From Eubacteriales bacterium (GTDB lineage: Bacteria; Bacillota; Clostridia; Oscillospirales; SIG627), in contig JAZOVP010000117.1 in NCBI GenBank assembly GCA_045658765.1, forward strand, positions 35,303 through 99,302: DNA of 64,000 bases. The letters run 5' to 3'. A program made the position numbers and the translations under genes. The number at the start of each line of letters is the position of its first letter. The stretch's first letter is position 1. The notes under the pieces were generated by a model. The model ran no database searches. It was not told where the DNA came from and worked only from the letters and a program-made list of their open reading frames with translations. This document shows, piece after piece, positions 6,045 to 35,608 of the stretch.

Positions 6045-8453
6045 ATGCCTCAAGGAAGCTTATTTGTTACCGTTCGCACAGCAGATAGCGCGTTTCCCGT
6101 GCAGGAAGCGGAGGTGATTATTACCACTCCCGAGGGAGTCGAAATCGGAAGGGATCGGGTAACTTCCCAAAACGGTTCGGTTTCAAGGGAATTTTTGATC
6201 GAAGCGCCCGAAAGAGAGCTTTCCCTTTCGCCGGGGGAAGCGCTTCCGTATTCTGTGGTGGATGCAAGGGTGGAGGCGTTTGGTTTTTACACCTTCCTGA
6301 TTCGCGGGATTCAGATTTTTGCGGGGGAAAAGAGTGTGTTGCCCGTGGAAATGATTCCGCGCGGCGCAAGCTCTGAAGATGAGGTGCTCGAATACGAAAT
6401 CGGCCCCCATGCGCTTCGCACAACCCCCGAAAACAGGATTGAAGGACCCGATGGCACGGAGCGGGTGCTTTCGCAGGTTTTCATTCCCGAAAAGATCACG
6501 GTGCATTTGGGAACTCCCGCTTCTTCCGCTTCGAATGTGAGTGTGCCTTTTATTGATTACATCAAAAACGTGGCTTCGAGCGAGGTTTATCCCACTTGGC
6601 CGGAAAACAGCTTGAGAGCCAATATCCTCTGCCAGATTTCATTTGCTTTAAACCGCATTTTCACCGAATGGTATCCGTCGAGAGGATATAATTTCAATAT
6701 CACCAATTCCACTGCCTATGATCAGTATTATGTTTACGGCAGAAATATTTTCCAGAGCGTTTCCACGATTGTGGATGAAATTTTCAATCAATATATCCGC
6801 CGCCCCGGCAGAATCGATCCGTTTTTTGCGGAATATTGCAACGGCACCACAGTTACTTGCGCGGGCCTTTCGCAGTGGGGCACGGTAACCCTTGCCAATA
6901 ACGGCAGAAGTGTGCTTGAAATTTTGCAATTTTATTATGGCGATGTGGAGATTGCGGAAACAAACATTATCCGAGCCATTGAAAGCTCTTATCCCGGTTC
7001 TCCTTTGCGGGTGGGCTCTTCGGGAAGAGCGGTGCGCACCATTCAGGAGCAGCTCAATCGAATCCGAGTGAATTACCCTTCCATTCCCGCAATCAGCCCT
7101 GTGGACGGAGTGTTTGGCAGGCAAACAGAAAATGCAGTGCGCGCCTTTCAGCGCATTTTTGATCTTACCGCCGATGGGGTGGTGGGAAAGAAAACCTGGT
7201 ATCGCATTTCCTATATTTATGTGGCAGTTAAGCGCCTTGCAGAGCTCAATAGCGAAGGAGAGCGCCCGCAATACGACGACAATGCCTTCCCCGGAATTCT
7301 GCGCCTTGGCGATACGGGTACGGCAGTGCAAAATCTGCAGTTTTATTTAAAAACCCTTGCCGCCTATAATCCCTTTTTGCGCGATGTTACCATTGATGGC
7401 TTTTTCGGTGCAGAAACACAAGATGCGGTGCGCGCGTTTCAAAAATTATATGGGCTCGCGCAAGACGGAGTGGTGGGCGAATCCACTTGGAATCGGATTG
7501 TTGCGGTGTATCTCGATATCACCGAGGGGGGCGATCTTGTGCTGAAGCCCTATCCCGGAAGGGTGATTCGTCAGGGATCTTCGGGCGAAAATGTTTTATA
7601 TGTGCAAATGCTCCTCAATCGCACAAGGCCTGTTTTTGTAACGATTCCGAAACTCGAGGAAGATGGCATTTTCGGCACCGGAATGAGAAGCGCGGTGCGC
7701 GAATTTCAGCGCCTTTTCGGGCTGAATGATGATGGCGTGGTTGGCAGGGATACTTGGAATGCCCTCAATCGGGTGTATGGTTCGGTGGTTTCGGGCTGTC
7801 TTGATAACGGTGAAACCGTGGGCGGCAGAATCCTCCGCTACGGCTCTTCGGGAAACGATGTGCGGGTTTTGCAGAATCAGCTCAACACCGTTGGCACATC
7901 GCTTTCTCCCATTCCCACCGTGGTTGCCGATGGGGCATACGGCAGAAGAACCGAAGAGGCAGTGCGGATTTTTCAGCGCATTTTCGGGCTCACCGCAGAT
8001 GGGGTGGCAGGTCAGGCCACGCGAACCCGCCTTCTTGCCATTTTCCGCGCGGTGGAGGCGGGATGCCTTCCCCGCAGAGGGCAGAGGGATCTTGAACTCC
8101 CGTTTTCTTTGGAGCCGAGGGGAGAAGAAAGGGCAATCGAAAGAAGCGAAATTTCGGAAGAAGCTTTGGATTGGAAAAAGGAATTTTTATCGGCAGAGCC
8201 GTTTCTTCCGAGGCAAGAGCTTTTCACGGAAGAAATCGGATTTCTTCCGCTTGCCCCCGGCAGCACGGGACCGCACGTGAAACGATGCAAGGATGCGCTT
8301 GCGGAATGGGGCTATTTATCCCACGGGGCAATCGGTGAAAATATGCTCTATGGCCCCGCCACCACGCGCGCGGTGATGGAATTTCAGATGGATCGCGGCA
8401 TCCCCGCAAGCGGCATTGTGGATCAGATCACTTGGGAAAGACTTTTTTCGTGA
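6045..8453 (+). CDS. SleC-like spore cortex-lytic enzyme / peptidoglycan-binding protein
   Basis: 802 aa. The region DYIKNVASSEVYPTWPENSLRANILCQISFALNRIFTEWY...GLSQWGTV resembles the SleC catalytic region. It is followed by five PG_binding_1-type repeats (G.SG..V..LQ..L...DG.FG..T..AV..FQ...L..DG.VG..TW). Confidence 0.7.
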   Translation: MPQGSLFVTVRTADSAFPVQEAEVIITTPEGVEIGRDRVTSQNGSVSREFLIEAPERELSLSPGEALPYSVVDARVEAFGFYTFLIRGIQIFAGEKSVLPVEMIPRGASSEDEVLEYEIGPHALRTTPENRIEGPDGTERVLSQVFIPEKITVHLGTPASSASNVSVPFIDYIKNVASSEVYPTWPENSLRANILCQISFALNRIFTEWYPSRGYNFNITNSTAYDQYYVYGRNIFQSVSTIVDEIFNQYIRRPGRIDPFFAEYCNGTTVTCAGLSQWGTVTLANNGRSVLEILQFYYGDVEIAETNIIRAIESSYPGSPLRVGSSGRAVRTIQEQLNRIRVNYPSIPAISPVDGVFGRQTENAVRAFQRIFDLTADGVVGKKTWYRISYIYVAVKRLAELNSEGERPQYDDNAFPGILRLGDTGTAVQNLQFYLKTLAAYNPFLRDVTIDGFFGAETQDAVRAFQKLYGLAQDGVVGESTWNRIVAVYLDITEGGDLVLKPYPGRVIRQGSSGENVLYVQMLLNRTRPVFVTIPKLEEDGIFGTGMRSAVREFQRLFGLNDDGVVGRDTWNALNRVYGSVVSGCLDNGETVGGRILRYGSSGNDVRVLQNQLNTVGTSLSPIPTVVADGAYGRRTEEAVRIFQRIFGLTADGVAGQATRTRLLAIFRAVEAGCLPRRGQRDLELPFSLEPRGEERAIERSEISEEALDWKKEFLSAEPFLPRQELFTEEIGFLPLAPGSTGPHVKRCKDALAEWGYLSHGAIGENMLYGPATTRAVMEFQMDRGIPASGIVDQITWERLFS

Positions 8454-26058: not shown

Positions 26059-27366
26059 ATGAAACAAAGAAAAGGATTTTATTTTTTTCTCTCGGTGCTG
26101 ATTCTTTCGCTTTTTCTTCTGTTTCCGGAAGTTTTTGCAAAAGAGGTTTGTGTTTTTTGCGAATACTATAAAGATTTAGGATTTCCGAAAGACTATGCGG
26201 CATCGCTTTGCGCGATTTCAACCGAGCATCCGAATTGGGAATTTGAGCCCCTTCCGATCACCTCGCTTTCCCGCGAGATTGGGGAGGAATATGATTTTCC
26301 CACCGTTTTGGAAAAAGAAATGGAAGTGGAAGAGCGAAATCTTGTGTTTGCGGAGGAGGATTTTTGCGCTTATTGGGATCCTGCACAAAAAAGCTTTGAT
26401 TCGGGATTCTACAGTGCAAACCGAGAGGCGGTGGCATATTTTTTGGATCCGAGAAATTTTCTTTCGGAAGAGGGAGTGTTTCAATTTCTGCTCCTTTCGG
26501 GGGGAGAAGAAATTTCGGCGGAAAGTTTGGAAAAGATCCTTTCTGGCACTCCGCTTTCCGGAAAAATCCTTGCCAATCAAAAGAGTGTGGCAGAGGAGCT
26601 TATCTTTTTGGGAAAAGAATGGAATGTGAGCCCCTTTCATCTTGCGGTGCGGCTTCGGCAGGAGCAAGGAGAGCGAGGGAATGTGCTACTTTCGGGGCAG
26701 GCGGGCAGCTTTTTGAAAGGAATCGGAAAAGATGGCGAAGGGCTTGATGGATATTTTAATCCTTTTAATATTGCCGCTTCCGGAAATTCCGAAGGCCAAA
26801 TTTATGATTCGGGGGCTCGCTTTGCCAAAAAAGAGGGATGGAATTCCCTTGAAAAAGCGCTTGCGGGCGGCGCAGAATATCTTGCGGTAAAATATGTGCT
26901 TTGTTATCAAAACACGCTTTATTTGCAAAAATGGAATGTGGATGCGCGCTCCCGCGAGGAGGGCGGGAGCCGCAATTTTTGGGGGCAGTATATGCAAAAC
27001 ATCGGCGGCGCAAAAACCGAAGCCGATGCGGTTTATCGCGCTTTTTCGGAAGCGGGGCTTTTGGAGGAGAATTTGCATTTTCTGATTCCCGTATATGAAA
27101 AGATGCCCGAGGAGCGCAGTGCGGATCCTGCGGGGGGCGATTGCGCGGTGTTTTCCTCTTTGCCGGCAGAAAATTTGCATCATGCGATTCCCGCCGCGAT
27201 GAGCGCCTTTTCCGAGGAACCGATTCGGAAAACAAAGGCGCTTACCTTTGAAAAAAAGGAGAAAGATTCCTTTTTTCTTGCATTTCTTTTGGGATGCTTT
27301 TTGCCGATGATTTTGATTTTCTGCGGGAGAAAAGCCGCTTTCTTGGCTAAGCGAAGCCAAAAATGA
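26059..27366 (+). CDS. secreted/anchored glucosaminidase-like cell-wall hydrolase (tentative)
   Basis: 435 aa. N-terminal signal peptide and a C-terminal TM segment with a basic tail. The central region (YFNPFNIAASG...ARFAKKEGWNSLEKALAGGAEYLAVKY...YLQKWNV) resembles mannosyl-glycoprotein endo-beta-N-acetylglucosaminidase domains. Confidence 0.5.
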   Translation: MKQRKGFYFFLSVLILSLFLLFPEVFAKEVCVFCEYYKDLGFPKDYAASLCAISTEHPNWEFEPLPITSLSREIGEEYDFPTVLEKEMEVEERNLVFAEEDFCAYWDPAQKSFDSGFYSANREAVAYFLDPRNFLSEEGVFQFLLLSGGEEISAESLEKILSGTPLSGKILANQKSVAEELIFLGKEWNVSPFHLAVRLRQEQGERGNVLLSGQAGSFLKGIGKDGEGLDGYFNPFNIAASGNSEGQIYDSGARFAKKEGWNSLEKALAGGAEYLAVKYVLCYQNTLYLQKWNVDARSREEGGSRNFWGQYMQNIGGAKTEADAVYRAFSEAGLLEENLHFLIPVYEKMPEERSADPAGGDCAVFSSLPAENLHHAIPAAMSAFSEEPIRKTKALTFEKKEKDSFFLAFLLGCFLPMILIFCGRKAAFLAKRSQK

Positions 27367-29472: not shown

Positions 29473-30219
29473 TTATTTTTCGATGCCGAAATCCTCGAGG
29501 GAGAGGGAAGAAAGATCGGCTTCTTCCTCTTCTTGATTTTCTTCGGGGAGCGTGCTTAAAATTTTCTTTTCTTCGGGCGGGATCGCCGCCTTTTTTGAGG
29601 GGAGGAAGAAAAAGAAAAGGGAAAGCGAATAGAAAAGATAATAGAAAAGCACCGAGATCACAACGAAGGAATAGCGGAAGGCATCATAGCGACCGAAATA
29701 GATGGTTTCGGAAAAATAGAACCATGAATATTTTTGCCCAAAGAGAAACGAGAGAATCAAAAGGAAAATTTGAAGAAGAATATGAGCCATGGCAAGGAAG
29801 GCGGTGATGCTTTTTCCTTCGGGCACAAAAGAGGAAACAAAAGAAAACGCGCCGAGAAGCAGAAGGAAAACGAGGGTGAAAATTTGGGGAAAAGAGATGT
29901 TTTCCTCGGAAAAAAGGAAAAGCGATTCCAAAAAAGCATAGCAAAAAAGGGGCACTCCCGCCAAGATGGGTGCGAGGCGCTTTGCGGATTTGGAATATTC
30001 AGAAAGAAGGATTGCAATCAAAAGCAAAAAGGGAGAGAGCATCCAGAAAAGATCCGAAAGGGTGGAAAGAGCGCCGTCTTTCGTGCCCAAGGGGAATTCA
30101 AAGCCCACCACAACTCCGCGATCGGAAAACCAGCCCATGGTGAGAAAAGTGAAAATGAGCATCCCCACAGCAGGGAAAAGGGCGGGGAAAAAATTGGAAT
30201 TGCGGGAACCTGATTTCAT
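29473..30219 (-). CDS. polytopic membrane protein with an acidic C-terminal tail, function unknown
   Basis: 248 aa with about 7 TM segments. The tail is EENQEEEEADLSSLSLEDFGIEK. GGAGGT RBS before the ATG at 30219. Confidence 0.6.
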   Translation of the reverse strand: MKSGSRNSNFFPALFPAVGMLIFTFLTMGWFSDRGVVVGFEFPLGTKDGALSTLSDLFWMLSPFLLLIAILLSEYSKSAKRLAPILAGVPLFCYAFLESLFLFSEENISFPQIFTLVFLLLLGAFSFVSSFVPEGKSITAFLAMAHILLQIFLLILSFLFGQKYSWFYFSETIYFGRYDAFRYSFVVISVLFYYLFYSLSLFFFFLPSKKAAIPPEEKKILSTLPEENQEEEEADLSSLSLEDFGIEK

Positions 30220-30332
30220 AGGCAACCTCCTTTTTTTCATTATTATACTATGCTTTTTTTGCTTTTTCAAGCATCTTGTCATTGCAAGTCATAAAAAGCG
30301 GGAGGTAAGATTGCCAAAAAAAGGAGAAAAAC

Positions 30333-30728
30333 ATGAAAAAGCTAACGGAGAGAGCAGCAAAGGAGAAGATTCGCGATTATTTTTTATCGCGAAAAGAGGA
30401 AAAAAGGGGGCAAGAGGGAGAGGTGATTTTGACCAAAACGGGCGAGATTTTATATGAAGAAAAGCCCTGCACCGTTTCGGGTCTTGCGCTCGCCCTTGGA
30501 TTTTCTTCGCGGGAAAAGCTTTATGCGATCAAAGATAAAAAAATAAAAGCGCTCGTGGATCGAGCGCTTTTAAGAATTGAAGAAAATGCGGAAGAAAAGC
30601 TTTTTTGCAAGGATACCTTCCACGGCGCCAAGCTCTTTTTGGAAGCAAATTTTGCGCGCTGGGCGGGAGAGAGCGAGGCAGAAGAAGGTGCGGCGAATTT
30701 GGGGGTGTGCTCCGTTTGGGCGGAGTGA
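30333..30728 (+). CDS. phage terminase small subunit-like protein
   Basis: 131 aa. PCTVSGLALALGFSSREKLY... then ...RIEENAEEKLF...GAKLFLEANFARW follows the HTH plus oligomerisation pattern of small terminases. Recognised by eye only. AAAGGAG RBS. Confidence 0.6.
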   Translation: MKKLTERAAKEKIRDYFLSRKEEKRGQEGEVILTKTGEILYEEKPCTVSGLALALGFSSREKLYAIKDKKIKALVDRALLRIEENAEEKLFCKDTFHGAKLFLEANFARWAGESEAEEGAANLGVCSVWAE

Positions 30729-31337
30729 TCAGCCCTCTCGCACCAAGATTACCTTGCCGCTATGGATTTTAATCACGGTGCTTTGGGTGCCTTCATTGCT
30801 GACTCCCAAGGGGAAATCGGGCGCCAGAATTTTTTCATTCAGCGGGTATTTTGCACCCGAAACGGAAATTTTGGCTTCGCCCTCGAAAGAAAAGAGGGAA
30901 AAATAACCGCCTGCGAAATCAAAGCAAAACTTGCCTTTTGAAAGAAGGCGAACCGAAGTGTTTTTGGAAAAGAGGATGCCTTCGGCTCCTTCTTTTTCCA
31001 AAAAGGAAAGAATTTGGAGCGAGGCGAGGGAATGCGAGAAGCGATTTCCGCCTAAAGCGCCGTGGAAATGGAAACGGCGATAGCCACGGGAAAGGCCGCA
31101 TCTTGCGGCGGCAAGAAGATCGGTATCGTCTTTTTCAACGGGGAGAACCACGGTTTCGATTTTTTCGGGAAAGAATCCCAAAGAATCGCCGTCGCCGATG
31201 AAAAGATCGGGCAAAATTCCTGAATTTTGAAGGTGGGTTAAGCCCCCGTCGGCGGCGATCACAAGATCGCCTTTGTTTTTTATAAAACCTTCGGGAGAAA
31301 AATCTGCTGCGCCCACGATGTGGCAAACGCCGTTCAT
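30729..31337 (-). CDS. thiN: thiamine diphosphokinase
   Basis: 202 aa. IAADGG...LPDLFIGDGDS motif of the TPK family. Its stop abuts the terS-like stop as TGATCA. Confidence 0.85.
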   Translation of the reverse strand: MNGVCHIVGAADFSPEGFIKNKGDLVIAADGGLTHLQNSGILPDLFIGDGDSLGFFPEKIETVVLPVEKDDTDLLAAARCGLSRGYRRFHFHGALGGNRFSHSLASLQILSFLEKEGAEGILFSKNTSVRLLSKGKFCFDFAGGYFSLFSFEGEAKISVSGAKYPLNEKILAPDFPLGVSNEGTQSTVIKIHSGKVILVREG

Positions 31338-31341
31338 AAAA

Positions 31342-31998
31342 TTATCCTTTCTTAAAAGAGGGGATTTTGGAAACTGCCAGTGAGGCGATGGCGGTGAGAA
31401 TGATTTCGGGGATCATATAAAGACCGTTGTAGACCAGGGAATACACAATGGCAAGACCCGTGCCCGAGAAGGTGCTCATCACCCAAGAGGAGATGGCAAG
31501 ATCCTTTGCGGCGCTTTCCAAGAAGAACCATTCAGCCCATGCGCCGTAGAAGATGGCGCCCGAGAGGGTGTGGAAAAGATAGCAGAGGAAAAGAGCGAAC
31601 ACAGAACCCCAGAAAAGCGCCCATTTTTGAGAAAGGCGATTTCGGAAAATGCCTGCCAAGCCCACGGATGTGAACGCGAGAATGTAATCAATGAGCAAAA
31701 TGAGGAAGGCAATGCCCACCGAGCCCATATAGGAATCGGAATCGGGAATGAAAAGCGCCGATACCGTGCGGAAGCCAACCGCCATTTGCAAAAGGGAATA
31801 CACGAAGGCGCTTCCGAGACCCCAACGGATGCCGTAGAGGTAGGAGATCAGAACGAGAGGCAAAAGACTTGCCAAGGTGATGGTGCCGCCGAAAGGAAGA
31901 TTTAAAAAGGGGATCCATTCGGACACCAAGGAAAGGGCGGTTCCCAGCGAAATGAGCATTGCAGAGGTAACCAGTTTTTTTGTTTTCGAGTGTTTCAT
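31342..31998 (-). CDS. thiT: ECF transporter S component for thiamine
   Basis: 218 aa with 6 TM segments. Lies directly downstream of a TPP riboswitch. AAGGAG RBS before the ATG at 31998. The tracked ORF extends into the riboswitch. Confidence 0.8.
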   Translation of the reverse strand: MKHSKTKKLVTSAMLISLGTALSLVSEWIPFLNLPFGGTITLASLLPLVLISYLYGIRWGLGSAFVYSLLQMAVGFRTVSALFIPDSDSYMGSVGIAFLILLIDYILAFTSVGLAGIFRNRLSQKWALFWGSVFALFLCYLFHTLSGAIFYGAWAEWFFLESAAKDLAISSWVMSTFSGTGLAIVYSLVYNGLYMIPEIILTAIASLAVSKIPSFKKG

Positions 31999-32007
31999 AA
32001 AAAACTC

Positions 32008-32150
32008 CTTAAAAAAATTCGCACAGGACGGAAGTCCCGTGCGAACGCGAATCTGGTTCTCTTGAAAACTCCCTACGCCGGTATTATCCATCTCAGGTTA
32101 AAGGGTTTGCGGTTTTCCGCATCTCAGCCGTAGCACCCCTGTTTTTCCGC
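32008..32150 (-). promoter_or_regulatory. TPP (THI-box) riboswitch with an intrinsic-terminator expression platform
   Basis: Minus strand reads GGGGUGCUACGGCUGAGAUGCGGAAAACCGCAAACCCUUUAACCUGAGAUGGAUAAUACCGGCGUAGGGAG, which contains the CUGAGA and ACCUGA..GGAUAAU.CC.GCG core. It is followed by the hairpin gcacgggac-uucc-guccugugc and a U7 run (32011-32045). Confidence 0.88.
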
Positions 32151-32166
32151 TCTTGTGCGTGAGATT

Positions 32167-32195
32167 ATCTTATCTGCTTTTTTTATGTTTGTCAA
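32167..32195 (-). promoter_or_regulatory. sigma-A promoter driving the TPP riboswitch and thiT-thiN
   Basis: Minus strand reads TTGACA, 17 nt, TAAGAT. The -35 lies 9 nt from the terL-like ATG on the other strand. Confidence 0.55.
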
Positions 32196-32203
32196 GTGAG
32201 AAA

Positions 32204-33574
32204 ATGAAATCTATTGAAAAATTTTTAAATTCGATTCATCCGTTTCCGCCTCAGGAAGAGTTTTTCCGCGCGAAGGCAAGAAGAATTGCCTATGGCGGGG
32301 CAAGAGGCGGCGGAAAAAGCTTTGCGATGCGAGCAAAGCTTGTGCTTTTGGCGCTTCGCTATCCCGGAATTCAAATTTTGCTTTTAAGAAGAAGCTTTCC
32401 CGAGCTTCGCGAAAATCATATCAATCCGCTTCGAAAATGGCTTTACGGGATTGCCACCTTTCGGGAATCCACAAAGGAATTTTTGTTTGCCTCTGGCTCG
32501 CGCATCAAGCTCGGTTATCTTGCCGAGGAGGGGGATGTGCTTCAATATCAGGGGCAGGCGTATGAAGTGATTGGCATGGAAGAGGCAACGCAGTTCACGG
32601 AAGCGCAGTATTACGCGATGACGGAATGTTGCCGCCTTTCGGGGCAAATGAAAGAAAAATTCACTCCGAGAATGTATTTTACTTGCAATCCCGGCGGGGT
32701 GGGGCATGCTTGGGTGAAGCGCCTTTTTATTGATCGGGATTACCGAGATGGGGAGGCGGCGGAGGATTATGTGTTTATTCCTTCCACGGTATACGACAAT
32801 CGGTATTTGATTCGGGAAAACCCCGAATATGTGCGAAATCTTGAAAGTTTGCCTCCGCTTCGCCGAAAGGCGATGCTGGAGGGGGATTGGGATGTGTTTG
32901 AGGGGCAGTATTTCACGGAATTTGATCGGAAAAAGCACGAAATTAAGCCCTTTGAAATTCCCGATTCCTGGCATCGCTTTGCGGCGATGGATTATGGGCT
33001 TGATATGACCTGCTGCCTTTGGTTTGCCTATCCTCCCGATCGAAGCCGCATTGTGATTTATCGCGAGCTCTATGAACCCTCTCTGGTGCTTTCTGCGGCG
33101 GCGGAGAAGATTTTGAAATTTCAAGGAAAAGAAGAGCTTCGTTATCTTACCGCTTCGCCCGATTTATCGGGAAGAAGGCAGGATGCGGGCAAAACGGGCT
33201 TTGATATTTTGAAAAACTGCGGACTTCGCGGGCTTGTTTCGGCGGATAACGAAAGGATTGCGGGGTGGCGCAGGGTGAGAGAATTCCTTCGAGCCGAAAC
33301 GGAAGAAGGGGCTTATTTGGGGATTTTTCCATCGTGCCGAAATCTGATTCGAACCCTGCCGCGACTCACCTTTGATTCGGTGAAAACAGAAGATGCCGCG
33401 ATTCATCCCCATGAATATACCCATGCTCCCGATGCTTTGCGCTACGGGCTTTCTTCTTTGCCTTTTTTGCCGGGAGAAATCAGGGCGGAAAAGGAGATTG
33501 TGCGCGATATTAAGGCGGAATTTTTTGGGAAGAAGCAGGGGAATCAGAGTTATATCGGCTTTTTGAAAAAATAA
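32204..33574 (+). CDS. phage terminase large subunit-like protein
   Basis: 456 aa. Walker A YGGARGGGKSF, an ATPase core (ILLLRRSFPEL, GMEEATQF), and a C-terminal RNaseH-like nuclease region (AMDYG...HAPDALRYG). No obvious RBS. The tracked start at 32153 lies inside the riboswitch promoter region. Confidence 0.8.
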   Translation: MKSIEKFLNSIHPFPPQEEFFRAKARRIAYGGARGGGKSFAMRAKLVLLALRYPGIQILLLRRSFPELRENHINPLRKWLYGIATFRESTKEFLFASGSRIKLGYLAEEGDVLQYQGQAYEVIGMEEATQFTEAQYYAMTECCRLSGQMKEKFTPRMYFTCNPGGVGHAWVKRLFIDRDYRDGEAAEDYVFIPSTVYDNRYLIRENPEYVRNLESLPPLRRKAMLEGDWDVFEGQYFTEFDRKKHEIKPFEIPDSWHRFAAMDYGLDMTCCLWFAYPPDRSRIVIYRELYEPSLVLSAAAEKILKFQGKEELRYLTASPDLSGRRQDAGKTGFDILKNCGLRGLVSADNERIAGWRRVREFLRAETEEGAYLGIFPSCRNLIRTLPRLTFDSVKTEDAAIHPHEYTHAPDALRYGLSSLPFLPGEIRAEKEIVRDIKAEFFGKKQGNQSYIGFLKK

Positions 33575-34447: not shown

Positions 34448-34681
34448 TCAATCTTTTATTTTTTTCAAGCAAGCGGGGCATAGCAGAAGATCGCTTTTCT
34501 GAATCAGATCGCCATCTTTTCCGCAAATGCAGCAAACGGACTTTTCCTTTTGCAAAATGATTTCTTGATTTTCAGGATCAAGTTTCATTAAAACGGAAGA
34601 ATTTGGGGATAAATGAAGCTGATCTCTGATATTTTTGGGAATCACAATTCTTCCCAAGGGGTCAATTTGTTTTATTGTCAT
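34448..34681 (-). CDS. AbrB/MazE/SpoVT-type DNA-binding protein with a C-terminal CxxC..CxxC zinc ribbon (copy 1)
   Basis: 77 aa, MTIKQIDPLGRIVIPKNIRDQL...CCICGKDGDLI...CPACLKKI. GAGGTG RBS before the ATG at 34681. Confidence 0.8.
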   Translation of the reverse strand: MTIKQIDPLGRIVIPKNIRDQLHLSPNSSVLMKLDPENQEIILQKEKSVCCICGKDGDLIQKSDLLLCPACLKKIKD

Positions 34682-34771
34682 AAAATCACCTCGGTTTATT
34701 TTACTACGATTTGATAGTAAAATCAATACTATTATTTGATAGTACATATACTTAACATTGAGGTGAGAGAT

Positions 34772-34990
34772 ATGTATTATCCACGATTAAAAGATTTGCG
34801 TGAAGATCGCGATTTGGTTCAAAAAGAAGTTGCGGCATTTCTTGGGATTGATCAAAGAGTATATAGCAATTATGAAACCGGCAAAAGAGATATTCCCACG
34901 CGTTTTGTGGTTTTGCTCGCAAAATATTATAACACTTCCGCTGATTATATACTGGGTTTAACCAATGAACCTAATTTTGGTAAAAAATAA
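34772..34990 (+). CDS. XRE-family helix-turn-helix regulator
   Basis: 72 aa. LVQKEVAAFLGIDQRVYSNYETGKRDIP is a classic Cro/CI HTH. GAGGTGAG RBS. Confidence 0.8.
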   Translation: MYYPRLKDLREDRDLVQKEVAAFLGIDQRVYSNYETGKRDIPTRFVVLLAKYYNTSADYILGLTNEPNFGKK

Positions 34991-35004
34991 ACTAAAAAAT
35001 AAAA

Positions 35005-35033
35005 AAGAACACCCGAGAGGGTGTTCTTTTTTT
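35005..35033. terminator. bidirectional terminator, copy 2 of the repeated hairpin
   Basis: aagaacaccc-gaga-gggtgttctt followed by a T-run. Confidence 0.85.
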
Positions 35034-35035
35034 GA

Positions 35036-35266
35036 TCAATCTTTTATTTTTTTCAAGCAAGCGGGGCATACCAGAAGATCGCTTTTTTGAATCAGATCGC
35101 TATCTTTTCCGCAAATGCAGCAAACCGGCTCTTCTTTTTTCAATATGATTTCTTGATTTTCAGGATCAATCTTGATGAAAAGGGCAGAGTTTGGGAATAA
35201 ATGAAGCTCTTCTCTGATATTTTTGGGAATCACAATTCTTCCCAAGGGGTCTATTTTTCTGATCAT
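35036..35266 (-). CDS. AbrB/MazE/SpoVT-type DNA-binding protein with a C-terminal zinc ribbon (copy 2)
   Basis: 76 aa, MIRKIDPLGRIVIPKNIREEL...CCICGKDSDLI...CPACLKKIKD. About 80% identical by eye to copy 1. Confidence 0.8.
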   Translation of the reverse strand: MIRKIDPLGRIVIPKNIREELHLFPNSALFIKIDPENQEIILKKEEPVCCICGKDSDLIQKSDLLVCPACLKKIKD

Positions 35267-35334
35267 AATGGAATTTCCTTTTTTTATTGAATTTTCGTTT
35301 GGCGCTTTCCGAGGTGCCAAAAAGAATCTAACTA

Positions 35335-35379
35335 TATGGGGGTTATATCCCCTTAATATTCGAGATTATAACCCCCATA
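35335..35379. promoter_or_regulatory. perfect 13-bp inverted repeat (candidate operator) in a divergent promoter region
   Basis: TATGGGGGTTATA (35335-35347), 19 nt, TATAACCCCCATA (35367-35379). Confidence 0.6.
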
Positions 35380-35404
35380 ATAATAAATGTCAAGGGGGAT
35401 GATT

Positions 35405-35608
35405 ATGATTGTATTTGACCGACTTTGGAACACGATGAAGGAAAAAGGTTTTTCCACGTATCAATTAAGAGAGCGTTGTGGAATCGACAGCAAAACGATC
35501 CGAAGATTAAAAGCGAACGAAAATATCGAAACAAAAACGATTGATAAGATTTGTTTGGCATTGAAATGTCGCATCGAGGATGTGGCGGAATATATTGAGG
35601 ATCGATAA
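35405..35608 (+). CDS. XRE-family helix-turn-helix regulator (different subfamily from 34772)
   Basis: 67 aa, MIVFDRLWNTMKEKGFSTYQLRERCGIDSKTIRRLK. AGGGGGA RBS before the ATG at 35405. Confidence 0.75.
   Translation: MIVFDRLWNTMKEKGFSTYQLRERCGIDSKTIRRLKANENIETKTIDKICLALKCRIEDVAEYIEDR

Follow-up and report, generated by a model that had tools for sequence, protein, structure and literature searches.

Separated small and large terminase genes, probably serving DNA packaging in a dispersed GTA-like element of Clostridia

Introduction

GTA-like packaging of 4.6-8.9 kb of host DNA has been described in Ruminococcaceae, Oscillospiraceae and Christensenellaceae, with the genes for such packaging identified only in Faecalibacterium (PMC12946183). 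The element in question, FpGTA of Faecalibacterium prausnitzii (Borodovich et al., Nat Commun 2026, PMC12946183), is the closest published analogue of the element considered here, although two marker genes differ. Operon I of FpGTA (~10 kb, ten genes) has the order TerS, TerL, portal, small gene, major capsid protein, small genes and coiled-coil ‘TolA-like' protein, and the compact operon found in relatives of the present locus shows the same order. Both elements come from Gram-positive gut Clostridia, lack replication genes, are spread over multiple loci (the second operon of FpGTA is located 125 kb away) and are predicted to have a podovirus-like form. The two differ in several respects: the FpGTA capsid is assigned to the N4-gp56 family, an NCBIfam model to which the capsid of the present type has no match at E <= 0.001, portal and capsid flank a Prp-like gene in FpGTA, a position at which the present type shows no Pfam match, the FpGTA terminase stays with the head genes so that the separated part consists of the tail and lysis genes, and no thi cassette has been reported for FpGTA. 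Faecalibacterium is absent from the best 80 genome loci, all with a TerL identity of at least 50%.

Other phage-derived systems show more limited likeness. GTAs of the RcGTA type have their genes distributed over several loci and are controlled by a host regulator. RcGTA and the alphaproteobacterial GTAs are likewise domesticated head-tail gene sets without replication or integration genes, vertically inherited and subject to purifying selection, but RcGTA is of unrelated origin (a siphovirus-like element of Proteobacteria with a head of the HK97 type), the main cluster still starts with the terminase genes, and packaging and transfer have been demonstrated, whereas those of the present element are predicted from its genes. 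The P22 module consists of gp3 (TerS), gp2 (TerL), gp1 (portal) and gp5 (coat), and the present element resembles it in the gp3 fold and Pfam family of TerS, a portal of the P22_portal family, a P22-coat-like capsid and a headful-type nuclease domain of TerL; P22, however, is a complete 42 kb temperate phage, and the TerS identity is 13-16% in the fold alignment. PBSX, too, is a chromosomal phage-like element of Firmicutes that packages host DNA, but it forms one uninterrupted unit of 28 kb, which is myovirus-like and includes a contractile tail. The cf-PICI are small clusters that likewise encode TerS, TerL, portal, scaffold and capsid themselves, but carry integrase, replication and regulatory genes and are located at attachment sites, whereas the flanks of the loci related to the present one yielded no such features.

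Terminase genes separated by a thiamine cassette

The window, that is, the whole 64 kb stretch of DNA that was analysed, contains a small and a large terminase gene separated by 1,475 bp (30729-32203) with a thi cassette on the minus strand:

30277-30311, plus strand: terS promoter/operator (direct-repeat motif, 18-nt spacer, -10-like element)
30333-30728, plus strand: terS, small terminase subunit (P22 gp3 type), 131 aa
30535-30572, minus strand: unidirectional intrinsic terminator for thiT-thiN, within the coding region of terS
30729-31337, minus strand: thiN, thiamine pyrophosphokinase, 202 aa (Pfam TPK_catalytic and TPK_B1_binding)
31254-31280, plus strand: hairpin followed by TTTGTTTTTT, antisense to thiN (-12.4 kcal/mol, z = -3.7)
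31342-31998, minus strand: thiT, S-component of an ECF-type thiamine transporter, 218 aa (Pfam Thia_YuaJ, 76 bits)
32017-32046, minus strand: terminator hairpin of the riboswitch expression platform (13-bp stem, -22.1 kcal/mol, z = -5.8, then U7)
32053-32150, minus strand: TPP riboswitch aptamer (Rfam RF00059, 63.5 bits; gathering threshold 54.3)
32167-32195, minus strand: thiT promoter TTGACA-17-TAAGAT, matching 10 of the 12 consensus positions
32204-33574, plus strand: terL, large terminase subunit with ATPase and RNase H-like nuclease domains, 456 aa

The terminase genes are genuine and intact. The terS product matches Pfam PF16677 GP3_package (29.9 bits, with a cutoff of 29.4) as well as the terminase small subunit family phrog_606, and the best PDB fold for its AlphaFold model (pLDDT 85) is the P22 gp3 nonamer 3p9a (probability 0.98, TM about 0.5). 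The terL product matches Pfam Terminase_3 (50.5 bits), Terminase_6N (38.7 bits) and PHROG terminase large subunit families (best E = 8e-46), and the top PDB folds for its model (pLDDT 83.9) are the full-length TerL of D6E, Sf6 and T4. Profile matches and folds agree with an earlier note on this DNA, which had called both ORFs terminase-like; the Walker A motif GGARGGGKS that it had read in the larger ORF is located at residues 31-39, and the C-terminal region that it had described as nuclease-like belongs to a full-length TerL fold with the nuclease residues retained. Among 23 TerL homologues, Walker A, the Walker B EE, D263 and D320 are all invariant, and the HAPDALRY aspartate is either D or E. 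The C-terminal tail of TerS is conserved and is retained in the protein encoded in the window.

Every element of the opposite-strand unit that had been proposed to fill the 1,475 bp, namely a promoter, a TPP riboswitch with its terminator, thiT and thiN, was recovered, with the start of thiT at 31998 rather than at that of the longer ORF. The stop codons of terS and thiN abut as the palindrome TGATCA (30726-30731), as described previously, and the -35 hexamer of the thiT promoter is 8 nt from the terL ATG, not 9 nt. The statement that the terS/thiN junction has no terminator holds for the junction itself, but a strong thiN terminator stands 157 nt beyond it, within terS (12-bp stem at 30544-30572, then U7; -17.9 kcal/mol, z = -6.7), which makes the statement incorrect in practice. 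This terminator is kept in the window and in the related loci L089, L006-L009, L011 and L012. Its palindrome is made of synonymous codons of KKIKALVDRALL and is broken in L010, which encodes the identical peptide and has no thi cassette, and in L013, which carries its own intergenic terminator (a terminator-like hairpin, on both strands, lies between terS and thiN in this locus). Clades a and b have thiT in the interval from terS to terL, the TPP riboswitch is present between thiT and terL in all eight thiT-carrying related loci tested, and every cassette-bearing relative in clade a keeps the TTGACA of the thiT promoter.

Head genes at a second locus in relatives and a shared promoter

In the window, tblastn searches with the portal, capsid, scaffold, virion-protein and holin homologues of relatives produced no matches, and a PHROG scan of ten unassigned ORFs detected no head or tail genes. 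These results bear out the earlier conclusion that portal, capsid, tail and lysis genes are absent from the window and that the locus is no ordinary prophage. The terminase pair is, however, an ‘orphan' in the window only and probably not in the genome, because relatives keep a head operon elsewhere in the same genome. TerL and capsid co-occur in all three related genomes where the pairing is testable, on one contig, 21 genes apart, in the first (E7580_00125 and E7580_00230, respectively), and on separate contigs of one MAG in each of the other two (MBQ3075229 and MBQ3075351; MBR2615903 and MBR2615961). Operons of the composition portal-scaffold-capsid-127-567-250, without terminase, are present in L008, L085 and L171, beside spoVFB in the first two and between yitT and rnhA in the third. 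The capsid is recognized by Pfam and PGAP as Phage_capsid_4 or P22 coat, and the portal belongs to the P22_portal family. This head operon does not simply duplicate the compact operon: it has no holin, and the capsids of the two share only about 29% identity, compared with about 60% for TerL.

Upstream of terS, the direct repeat TGTCATTGCAAGTCA (30277-30291), which includes a -35-like TTGCAA, is followed by an 18-nt spacer and a -10-like TAAGAT (30306-30311). Clade-a relatives as well as L017, L019 and L021 have one copy of the motif per ~20 kb locus, invariably 5' of terS; the window contains two matches compared with 0.19 expected by chance. In L085 and L171, the sequence TGTCATTGCNNGTCA stands upstream of the portal operon, as it does upstream of terS in the matched clade-a loci. 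Because terS and the portal operon share a promoter/operator, one regulator should switch both loci on together, and simultaneous activation of the terS locus and the portal locus is predicted.

These findings suggest that terS and terL are probably the working packaging module of a chromosomally fixed, vertically inherited, phage-derived GTA-like element, or viriform, most likely with a P22-type head and probably with a short tail. Among the possibilities listed in the earlier note, a helper for a GTA-like element encoded elsewhere is favoured by the second-locus head operon of relatives, with the same promoter motif as terS, whereas a helper of a satellite finds no support, given that no integrase or replication genes flank the related loci. 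It appears rather unlikely that the genome has lost its head genes, with the terminase pair co-opted for a role other than capsid filling, for example, chromosomal DNA processing, or packaging into the capsids of an infecting phage, helper or satellite. Such a loss would be compatible with the lack of head and tail genes across 64 kb and with the varying position of the head operon, which is missing from the available sequence upstream of spoVFB in L006 and L010-L012, but is at odds with the joint presence of TerL and capsid in 3/3 testable genomes, with the promoter motif common to terS and the portal operon, and with the retention of the TerL ATPase and nuclease residues and of the TerS tail, which fits capsid filling.

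A compact operon in related Clostridia

In the TerL tree, the window lineage is the sister group of a large Clostridia clade with a single compact operon of ~9 kb (8.3-9.5 kb for the majority of 31 loci) and the gene order terS-terL-portal-scaffold-major capsid protein-small adaptor proteins-large virion protein-coiled-coil protein-holin. Lineages without a portal gene beside terL group in a single clade, whereas in the outgroups terL adjoins portal. For the GTA-like element, the ancestral state would be one ~9 kb operon running from terS through holin, as in these relatives. In the window lineage, as relatives show, the terminase pair has parted from the portal-to-tail genes, which persist as a distant operon, thiT under the control of a TPP riboswitch has been inserted antisense between terS and terL, to be joined later by thiN, and terS and the distant portal operon have retained one promoter/operator. 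TerS would assemble as a ring and TerL as a motor, docking on procapsids produced from the other locus, and these would be filled headful-wise, most likely with host DNA.

Several features set the compact operon apart from a prophage. It contains no replication, integration or lysogeny genes, it is flanked by housekeeping genes according to Pfam, with lepA-hemW upstream in 10 species, and matches to the flanks of phage contigs are limited to 2 of 196 flanking ORFs, compared with 126 of 305 for viral contigs among themselves. The best TerL match among GenBank phages, a 9.6 kb faecal contig of unverified status, is 50.5% identical; identities to cultured phages do not exceed 40%, and the closest IMG/VR entry reaches 59%. 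No match from GenBank phages or IMG/VR falls inside the 63-100% clade. Some compact operons (L091 and L092) are labelled viral in IMG/VR, and in one sub-lineage a large serine recombinase immediately follows terL.

A real particle system with a purpose other than gene transfer, that is, a killing particle (PBSX or tailocin-like), programmed lysis or DNA release, is unlikely. PBSX of Bacillus subtilis packages host DNA and yet acts as a bacteriocin, the only NCBIfam match of TerL is the PBSX-family terminase (below the cutoff, 65 bits versus 105), the compact operon ends in a holin gene, and the same possibility has been raised by the authors of FpGTA (PMC12946183). The gene set is, however, P22-like and short-tailed, with neither a contractile sheath nor a tape measure. 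Still less credible is a mobile element that is not fixed in the host, be it a cf-PICI-like capsid-forming satellite or an integrated small podovirus. With terS, terL, portal, scaffold, capsid, a few virion genes and holin, the compact operon does resemble capsid-forming satellites, a 2026 preprint raises the same ambiguity over similar clusters, and the IMG/VR entries and the recombinase point in the same direction; against this, the operon flanks are devoid of integrase, replication and regulatory genes, the lepA-hemW neighbourhood is stable, and the genes of the window clade are scattered among sporulation and thiamine genes and co-diverge with these.

Selection and conservation of the locus

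Compared with L089, the closest relative (dS about 0.85), the dN/dS ratio is 0.080 for terL, 0.124 for terS, 0.123 for thiT, 0.219 for the queG-like gene, 0.228 for the membrane protein gene and 0.231 for thiN. The values for the terminase genes, which indicate strong purifying selection, are thus below or about equal to those of the four measured neighbours, and TerL is the slowest evolving among the five genes compared at the locus, with pairwise distances that correlate with those of the neighbours (rho 0.40-0.67). The arrangement is repeated in 11 other loci with TerL 73-90% identical: the order terS/thiN/thiT/terL/queG-like is found in L089, L001/L005, L006-L009, L011, L013 and L172-L175 (L173-L175 are short contigs that show it in part only), and L012 has the gene order of the window minus thiN. 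The split order is thus conserved, whereas in relatives that lack the thi cassette, terS directly adjoins terL. No frameshifts were detected across the 11 orthologous loci, and full-length orthologues of 58-100% identity form ~100 clusters (at 90% identity) on long chromosomal contigs. The low dN/dS, the invariant catalytic motifs and the recurring arrangement show that the pair is not a decaying remnant, so that the very old remnant with ORFs still open, which the earlier note had entertained, is refuted. Despite the isolation of the pair amid cellular genes, some of them inserted between the two ORFs, it is extremely improbable that these are the last, neutrally evolving ORFs of an old decaying prophage, with both genes under such constraint, no frameshifts, full-length orthologues in many genomic contigs, and TerL conserved more strongly than the four neighbouring genes compared.

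Transcription of terL

Between thiT and the terL start, neither a sigma-70-like promoter on the plus strand nor the shared TGTCATTGCNNGTCA motif was found. Tentatively, transcripts that start at the terS promoter and run on through the antisense thi cassette might extend into terL. The plus-strand hairpin with its T-run at 31254-31280, at a position that is not conserved in most relatives, could be an obstacle to read-through in the window, as could the both-strand hairpin in L013.

Identity and selective constraint of the terminase genes

The small and large terminase genes, terS and terL, lie on the plus strand of the window and are separated by the thi cassette, a minus-strand unit that consists of a promoter, a TPP riboswitch, a terminator, thiT and thiN.

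Features of the split terminase locus
30277-30291, motif of the predicted terS promoter, with the -10 at 30306-30311
30333-30728, plus strand, terS, 131 aa, P22 gp3 small-terminase family
30544-30572, minus strand, putative thiN terminator inside terS, 12-bp stem, -17.9 kcal/mol, z = -6.7, followed by U7
30729-31337, minus strand, thiN of the thi cassette
31342-31998, minus strand, thiT of the thi cassette
32017-32046, minus strand, riboswitch terminator hairpin, -22.1 kcal/mol
32053-32150, minus strand, TPP riboswitch, RF00059, 63.5 bits
32195-32167, minus strand, thiT promoter, TTGACA-17-TAAGAT
32204-33574, plus strand, terL, 456 aa, large terminase families

The earlier note took the two ORFs for terminase subunits, and Pfam and PHROG searches, together with a fold search for TerL, confirm this identification. 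TerL scores well beyond the Pfam cutoffs for Terminase_3 (50.5 bits, cutoff 23.2) and Terminase_6N (38.7 bits, cutoff 22), and matches the PHROG large-terminase families (PHROG 979, E = 8e-46; PHROG 2, E = 3e-41). In Foldseek, the AlphaFold model (pLDDT 83.9) aligns over the full length with the TerL proteins of D6E, Sf6 (gp2) and T4 (gp17), with E-values down to 3e-20, with a further match to the P22 and SPP1 nuclease domains; the predicted structure is a two-domain fold with an N-terminal ASCE ATPase and a C-terminal RNase H-like nuclease. Across 23 homologues with 58-100% identity, Walker A (G31-S39), Walker B (E126-E127) and the nuclease residues D263 and D320 are invariant, and the third acidic position, in HAPDALRY, is either D or E. 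By its sequence and model, TerL would belong to the headful P22/SPP1/PBSX type, for which translocation and headful cleavage are the predicted activities. TerS passes the PF16677 threshold marginally (29.9 bits, cutoff 29.4), a precomputed match to the same family is present in many TerS orthologues, and the protein also matches phrog_606 (E = 8.5e-7). The five best PDB matches of its AlphaFold model (pLDDT 85) are all P22 gp3 chains (probability 0.97-0.98, TM 0.45-0.51), with an E-value of only 0.03, the gp3 nonamer being the sole meaningful match.

The possibility raised previously that the pair is a very old remnant is refuted, because dN/dS is low, TerL changes more slowly than the other genes compared and its distances track those of the neighbors. 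When the window is compared with its closest relative, L089 (TerL 90% identical, dS about 0.85), dN/dS is 0.080 for terL and 0.124 for terS, along with 0.123 for thiT, 0.219 for the queG-like gene, 0.228 for the membrane protein and 0.231 for thiN; beyond L089, dS is saturated (>1 or undefined), and only this comparison is quantitatively trustworthy. In a comparison of five genes across eleven loci of the clade, TerL evolves most slowly, and its pairwise distances follow those of the neighboring genes (Spearman rho 0.40-0.67). A neutral remnant is ruled out by these dN/dS values together with the co-divergence. The terminase genes are vertically inherited in conserved synteny and evolve under purifying selection, as is characteristic of gene transfer agents (GTAs).

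Arrangements of the terminase genes in related genomes

A protein search yielded about 7,900 TerL relatives, the best 120 of which form a smooth series from 100 to 58% identity; all named members of these 120 are Clostridia MAGs, many on contigs of 100-400 kb. Eighty genomic loci and several metagenomic ones, denoted here by L numbers, sort into four arrangements.

Arrangements around terL, with TerL identity to the window
Group a (the clade of the window), 73-90%: membrane protein, terS, thiN, thiT, terL, queG-like gene
Group b, 63-65%: terS, thiT, terL
Group c, 64-65%: terS-terL, then a large serine recombinase
Group d (the compact operon), 52-63%: terS-terL-portal (P22_portal)-scaffold-capsid (Phage_capsid_4)-two or three small genes-large virion protein-coiled-coil protein-holin

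Group a loci often adjoin the dipicolinate synthase genes spoVFA/B, and there are two exceptions to the gene order of this group, L012, which lacks thiN, and L010, which lacks the whole cassette. In L010, as in group c and in the compact-operon clade, terS adjoins or overlaps terL; in the window, the cassette intervenes. In a neighbor-joining tree of TerL, built without support values, groups a, b and c form one clade that is the sister of group d, and the outgroups, too, have terL beside the portal gene. The simplest history consists of three steps: the terminase genes were separated from the portal gene once, the riboswitch and thiT were inserted in the common ancestor of groups a and b, and thiN was added in group a.

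In one sub-lineage (L002/L003, L015-L018 and L065; about 11.5-12.9 kb in L002; TerL 64-65%), the recombinase and a conserved 136-aa protein are encoded directly 3' of terS-terL, in housekeeping surroundings. The serine recombinase contains the Resolvase, Recombinase and Zn_ribbon_recom domains and may represent an intervening element or else what is left from the detachment of the terminase genes from the portal gene.

The thi cassette and a terminator embedded in terS

The RF00059 aptamer, its terminator, thiT and thiN are one transcription unit, that is, a thiamine salvage cassette controlled by a TPP riboswitch. Profile, Rfam and folding-energy scans uphold the anatomy that the earlier note had proposed for the region from terS to terL, with a correction of the distance between the -35 of the thiT promoter and the terL ATG, which is 8 nt and not 9 nt. 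The Rfam search of the relatives took in nine loci, and the riboswitch is found between thiT and terL in all eight tested loci of groups a and b that carry thiT.

The stop codons of terS and thiN merge as TGATCA. The absence of a terminator, noted previously, holds for this junction itself, but a terminator is predicted 157 nt further on, inside terS. The stem and the A-run of this element are composed of synonymous codons of KKIKALVDRALL, and the palindrome has no U-tract on the plus strand and therefore should not stop the transcription of terS. Because the palindrome and the A-run are broken both in L010, which encodes nearly the same peptide and has no thi cassette, and in L013, which has an intergenic terminator of its own, there is good comparative evidence that the coding sequence of the viral gene has come to include the putative host terminator.

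Head genes at separate loci

Neither a tblastn search with homologues from the relatives nor a PHROG scan of ten unassigned ORFs detected a portal, capsid or other head-operon homologue in the window, in agreement with what had been noticed from the sequence. The relatives have not lost the head genes but carry them at scattered positions. L008 (TerL 81%) encodes homologues of the scaffold, the capsid and the 127-aa and 567-aa virion proteins about 4.6 kb from terS, on its upstream side and past spoVFA/B. L085 carries the full operon, portal-140-capsid-127-567-248, preceded by a gene with a metallo-beta-lactamase fold and with no terminase, and L171 has the same six genes between yitT and rnhA/mnmA. 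In three related genomes, TerL and the capsid could be paired by locus tags and accession numbers: on one contig, 21 genes apart (E7580_00125 and E7580_00230, respectively), and, in two genomes, on different contigs (MBQ3075229 and MBQ3075351; MBR2615903 and MBR2615961). The capsid family, also highly conserved, comprises 2,078 relatives, the best 120 of which grade smoothly from 98% to 66% identity. A head operon is presumably present in the genome of the window as well. In the derived form of the element, the terminase genes and the head genes, and probably the lysis genes too, are located at different loci.

Two proteins encoded in the window show similarity to phage cell-wall proteins. The first, a 435-aa secreted protein (26059-27366), has no Pfam match but resembles a PHROG tail-associated cell-wall hydrolase (E = 2e-11); its gene is located two genes past spoVFB, toward the side that is occupied by the portal-capsid operon in L008 and L085. 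The second, an 802-aa protein (6045-8453), has repeated domains that resemble the repeats with which phage endolysins bind the cell wall (PHROG, E-values as low as 1e-93) and is probably a host wall-associated protein, not a phage gene product.

A common predicted promoter of terS and the portal operon

Upstream of terS, we identified the motif TGTCATTGCNNGTCA, in which two TGTCA half-sites ten nucleotides apart enclose a -35-like TTGC; this TGTCA-N5-TGTCA motif is followed by an 18-nt spacer and a TATAAT-like -10. The motif is matched in the window and in 8 of the 10 other clade-a loci, with close variants outside the search pattern in L010 and L013, and a diverged second half-site in L089. 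Each 20 kb locus has a single copy of the pattern, invariably upstream of terS; the window contains two matches, compared with 0.19 expected, the second one inside a coding region. In L085 and L171, the same motif also precedes the portal gene, and TKKCATKGYNNKKCA is the DNA motif to be expected before a portal-capsid operon in the genome of the window. The motif shared by terS and the portal operon links the two loci as a putative regulon, and the predicted promoter/operator would coordinate their control; terL has no such site.

The TGTCA repeat is absent upstream of terS in the compact-operon clade. In five loci (L044, L045, L029, L066 and L041), the region upstream of terS contains, instead of this repeat, roughly CGAGATGA-N17-19-GTGATAnAAT, and therefore the control of the element appears to differ between lineages.

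The gene of the upstream membrane protein is divergent from terS. Its mechanically called ORF (29473-30282) is too long, and the likely start is at 30219, because a strong promoter (TTGAAA-17-TATAAT, 30270-30242), back-to-back with that of terS, and an AGGAGG ribosome-binding site precede this position.

Transcription of terL

Transcripts that start at the terS promoter might run through the antisense cassette and so reach terL, a tentative reading to which we give less than even weight. Read-through is suggested because a promoter scan of the plus strand from thiT to the terL start detected no sigma-70-like promoter, TGTCATTGCNNGTCA is likewise absent from this interval, the 53 nt from the riboswitch to the terL ATG are occupied by the thiT promoter, and, in the relatives that lack the cassette, the two terminase genes are contiguous or overlapping, as in an operon. 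Against read-through, there is a plus-strand hairpin with a T-run in the window (31254-31280, -12.4 kcal/mol), which is not conserved in the relatives, and a terminator-like hairpin for both strands after terS in L013.

If terL is reached only in this way, the antisense cassette could be a metabolic gate on DNA packaging and not a mere passenger. When TPP is scarce, the riboswitch would permit transcription of thiT-thiN, head-on against the read-through, and the thiT promoter, which overlaps the terL ribosome-binding site, would be occupied, both effects blocking the expression of terL; when TPP is plentiful, thi transcription would stop after about 150 nt, leaving the path to terL free. Particles would then be filled only in cells with an ample supply of the vitamin. 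The retention of the cassette between terS and terL since before the split of groups a and b (about 63% TerL identity), the extremely tight junctions of the cassette, and the one-directional thiN terminator made of synonymous codons in terS all fit such a gate without proving it, and we consider this reading improbable.

Relationship to phages, satellites and gene transfer agents

An ordinary prophage can be ruled out for the compact operon. In most of the 31 loci, this operon is 8.3-9.5 kb long, and it is flanked by housekeeping genes, such as TrkA/TrkH and an aminoacyl-tRNA synthetase; only 2 of the 196 flanking ORFs resemble the flanks of viral contigs, compared with 126 of 305 when the viral contigs are matched against one another. 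The lepA gene is located upstream of the compact operon in ten species from several sub-clades (L024, L026, L032, L037, L038, L050, L053, L054, L059 and L060), in some cases together with a hemW-like radical SAM gene, and this neighborhood is a stable chromosomal address of the operon over long divergence. Both the compact operons and the window locus carry phage-derived structural or packaging genes and none for replication, integration or lysogeny.

Phages proper are only distantly related to the window. The IMG/VR contigs of 32-45 kb encode TerL proteins with 49-57% identity, and the best IMG/VR match overall is at 59%; no cultured phage exceeds 40% TerL identity to the window. The best match among GenBank phages (50.5%), L090, is an unverified 'Bacteriophage sp.' sequence of 9,588 nt from a human faecal sample (MT836592.1), which contains terL-portal-capsid-virion protein of the same terminase/compact-operon family and little else.

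A capsid-forming phage satellite, which would carry integrase, replication and regulatory genes next to the packaging genes, is not supported: a Pfam search of the flanks of L004, L087, L085 and L171, all of which consist of housekeeping genes, found no integrase, replication initiator/primase or regulatory module.

The nearest published analogue is the GTA of Faecalibacterium prausnitzii (FpGTA), which is encoded by two operons 125 kb apart, the first being 10.5 kb long and containing ten genes that follow the order of the compact operon described here; its 40-nm particles have no visible tails, are probably podovirus-like and package about 8.5-9 kb of host DNA (PMC12946183). Unlike the FpGTA capsid, which belongs to the N4-gp56 family, two tested capsids of the window family have no NCBIfam match at E <= 0.001, and, whereas a Prp-like gene separates portal and capsid in FpGTA, the 140-aa gene in that place here has no Pfam match. 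No Faecalibacterium record is present among the best 80 TerL loci. The comparison, which covered annotations and marker families, suggests that the window family is not orthologous to FpGTA I and II (RCH50844-RCH50853; CP030777, 2536737-2546346 and 2672270-2677176); a distant relationship is possible.

The window locus is best filed as part of a multi-locus GTA-like element of gut Clostridia, of a recently recognized kind; this element would presumably produce particles containing host DNA. Its variant trait, read from gene order, is that the terminase operon appears to have first been parted from the head genes and later interrupted by a thiamine cassette under riboswitch control. For gut Ruminococcaceae, Oscillospiraceae and Christensenellaceae, a 2026 study reported that capsid-mediated DNA mobilization most often takes the form of GTA-like packaging of short host DNA, with the genes found only in Faecalibacterium; such packaging in Ruminococcus callidus (4.6 kb), Christensenellaceae, Gemmiger and Onthomonas has no genes assigned (PMC12946183). 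A preprint of July 2026 describes similar clusters in mouse-gut Clostridia and points out that GTAs are hard to tell from capsid-forming satellites. The terminase/compact-operon family, which comprises the compact P22-like operon of ~9 kb in many gut Clostridia and the dispersed derived form, is a concrete candidate for these gene-unassigned activities. The evolution of this family appears to be a stepwise dismantling of a domesticated virus into host operons, through the separation of the portal gene, the insertion of a vitamin cassette into the terminase operon and the placement of a host terminator in a viral gene. Finders of prophages and GTAs will miss such systems because no single locus looks viral.

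Other genes next to the terminase locus

Immediately after the queG-like gene, there are two divergent gene pairs in tandem (34448-35608), which encode the following proteins.

34448-34747 and 35036-35320, minus strand, AbrB/MazE-type proteins with a C-terminal zinc ribbon
34772-34990 and 35387-35608, plus strand, small XRE/Cro-type HTH proteins

These pairs are not seen at the same position in L001, L089 and L173, the three relatives with annotated downstream genes, and could be regulators or a toxin-antitoxin-like duplication.
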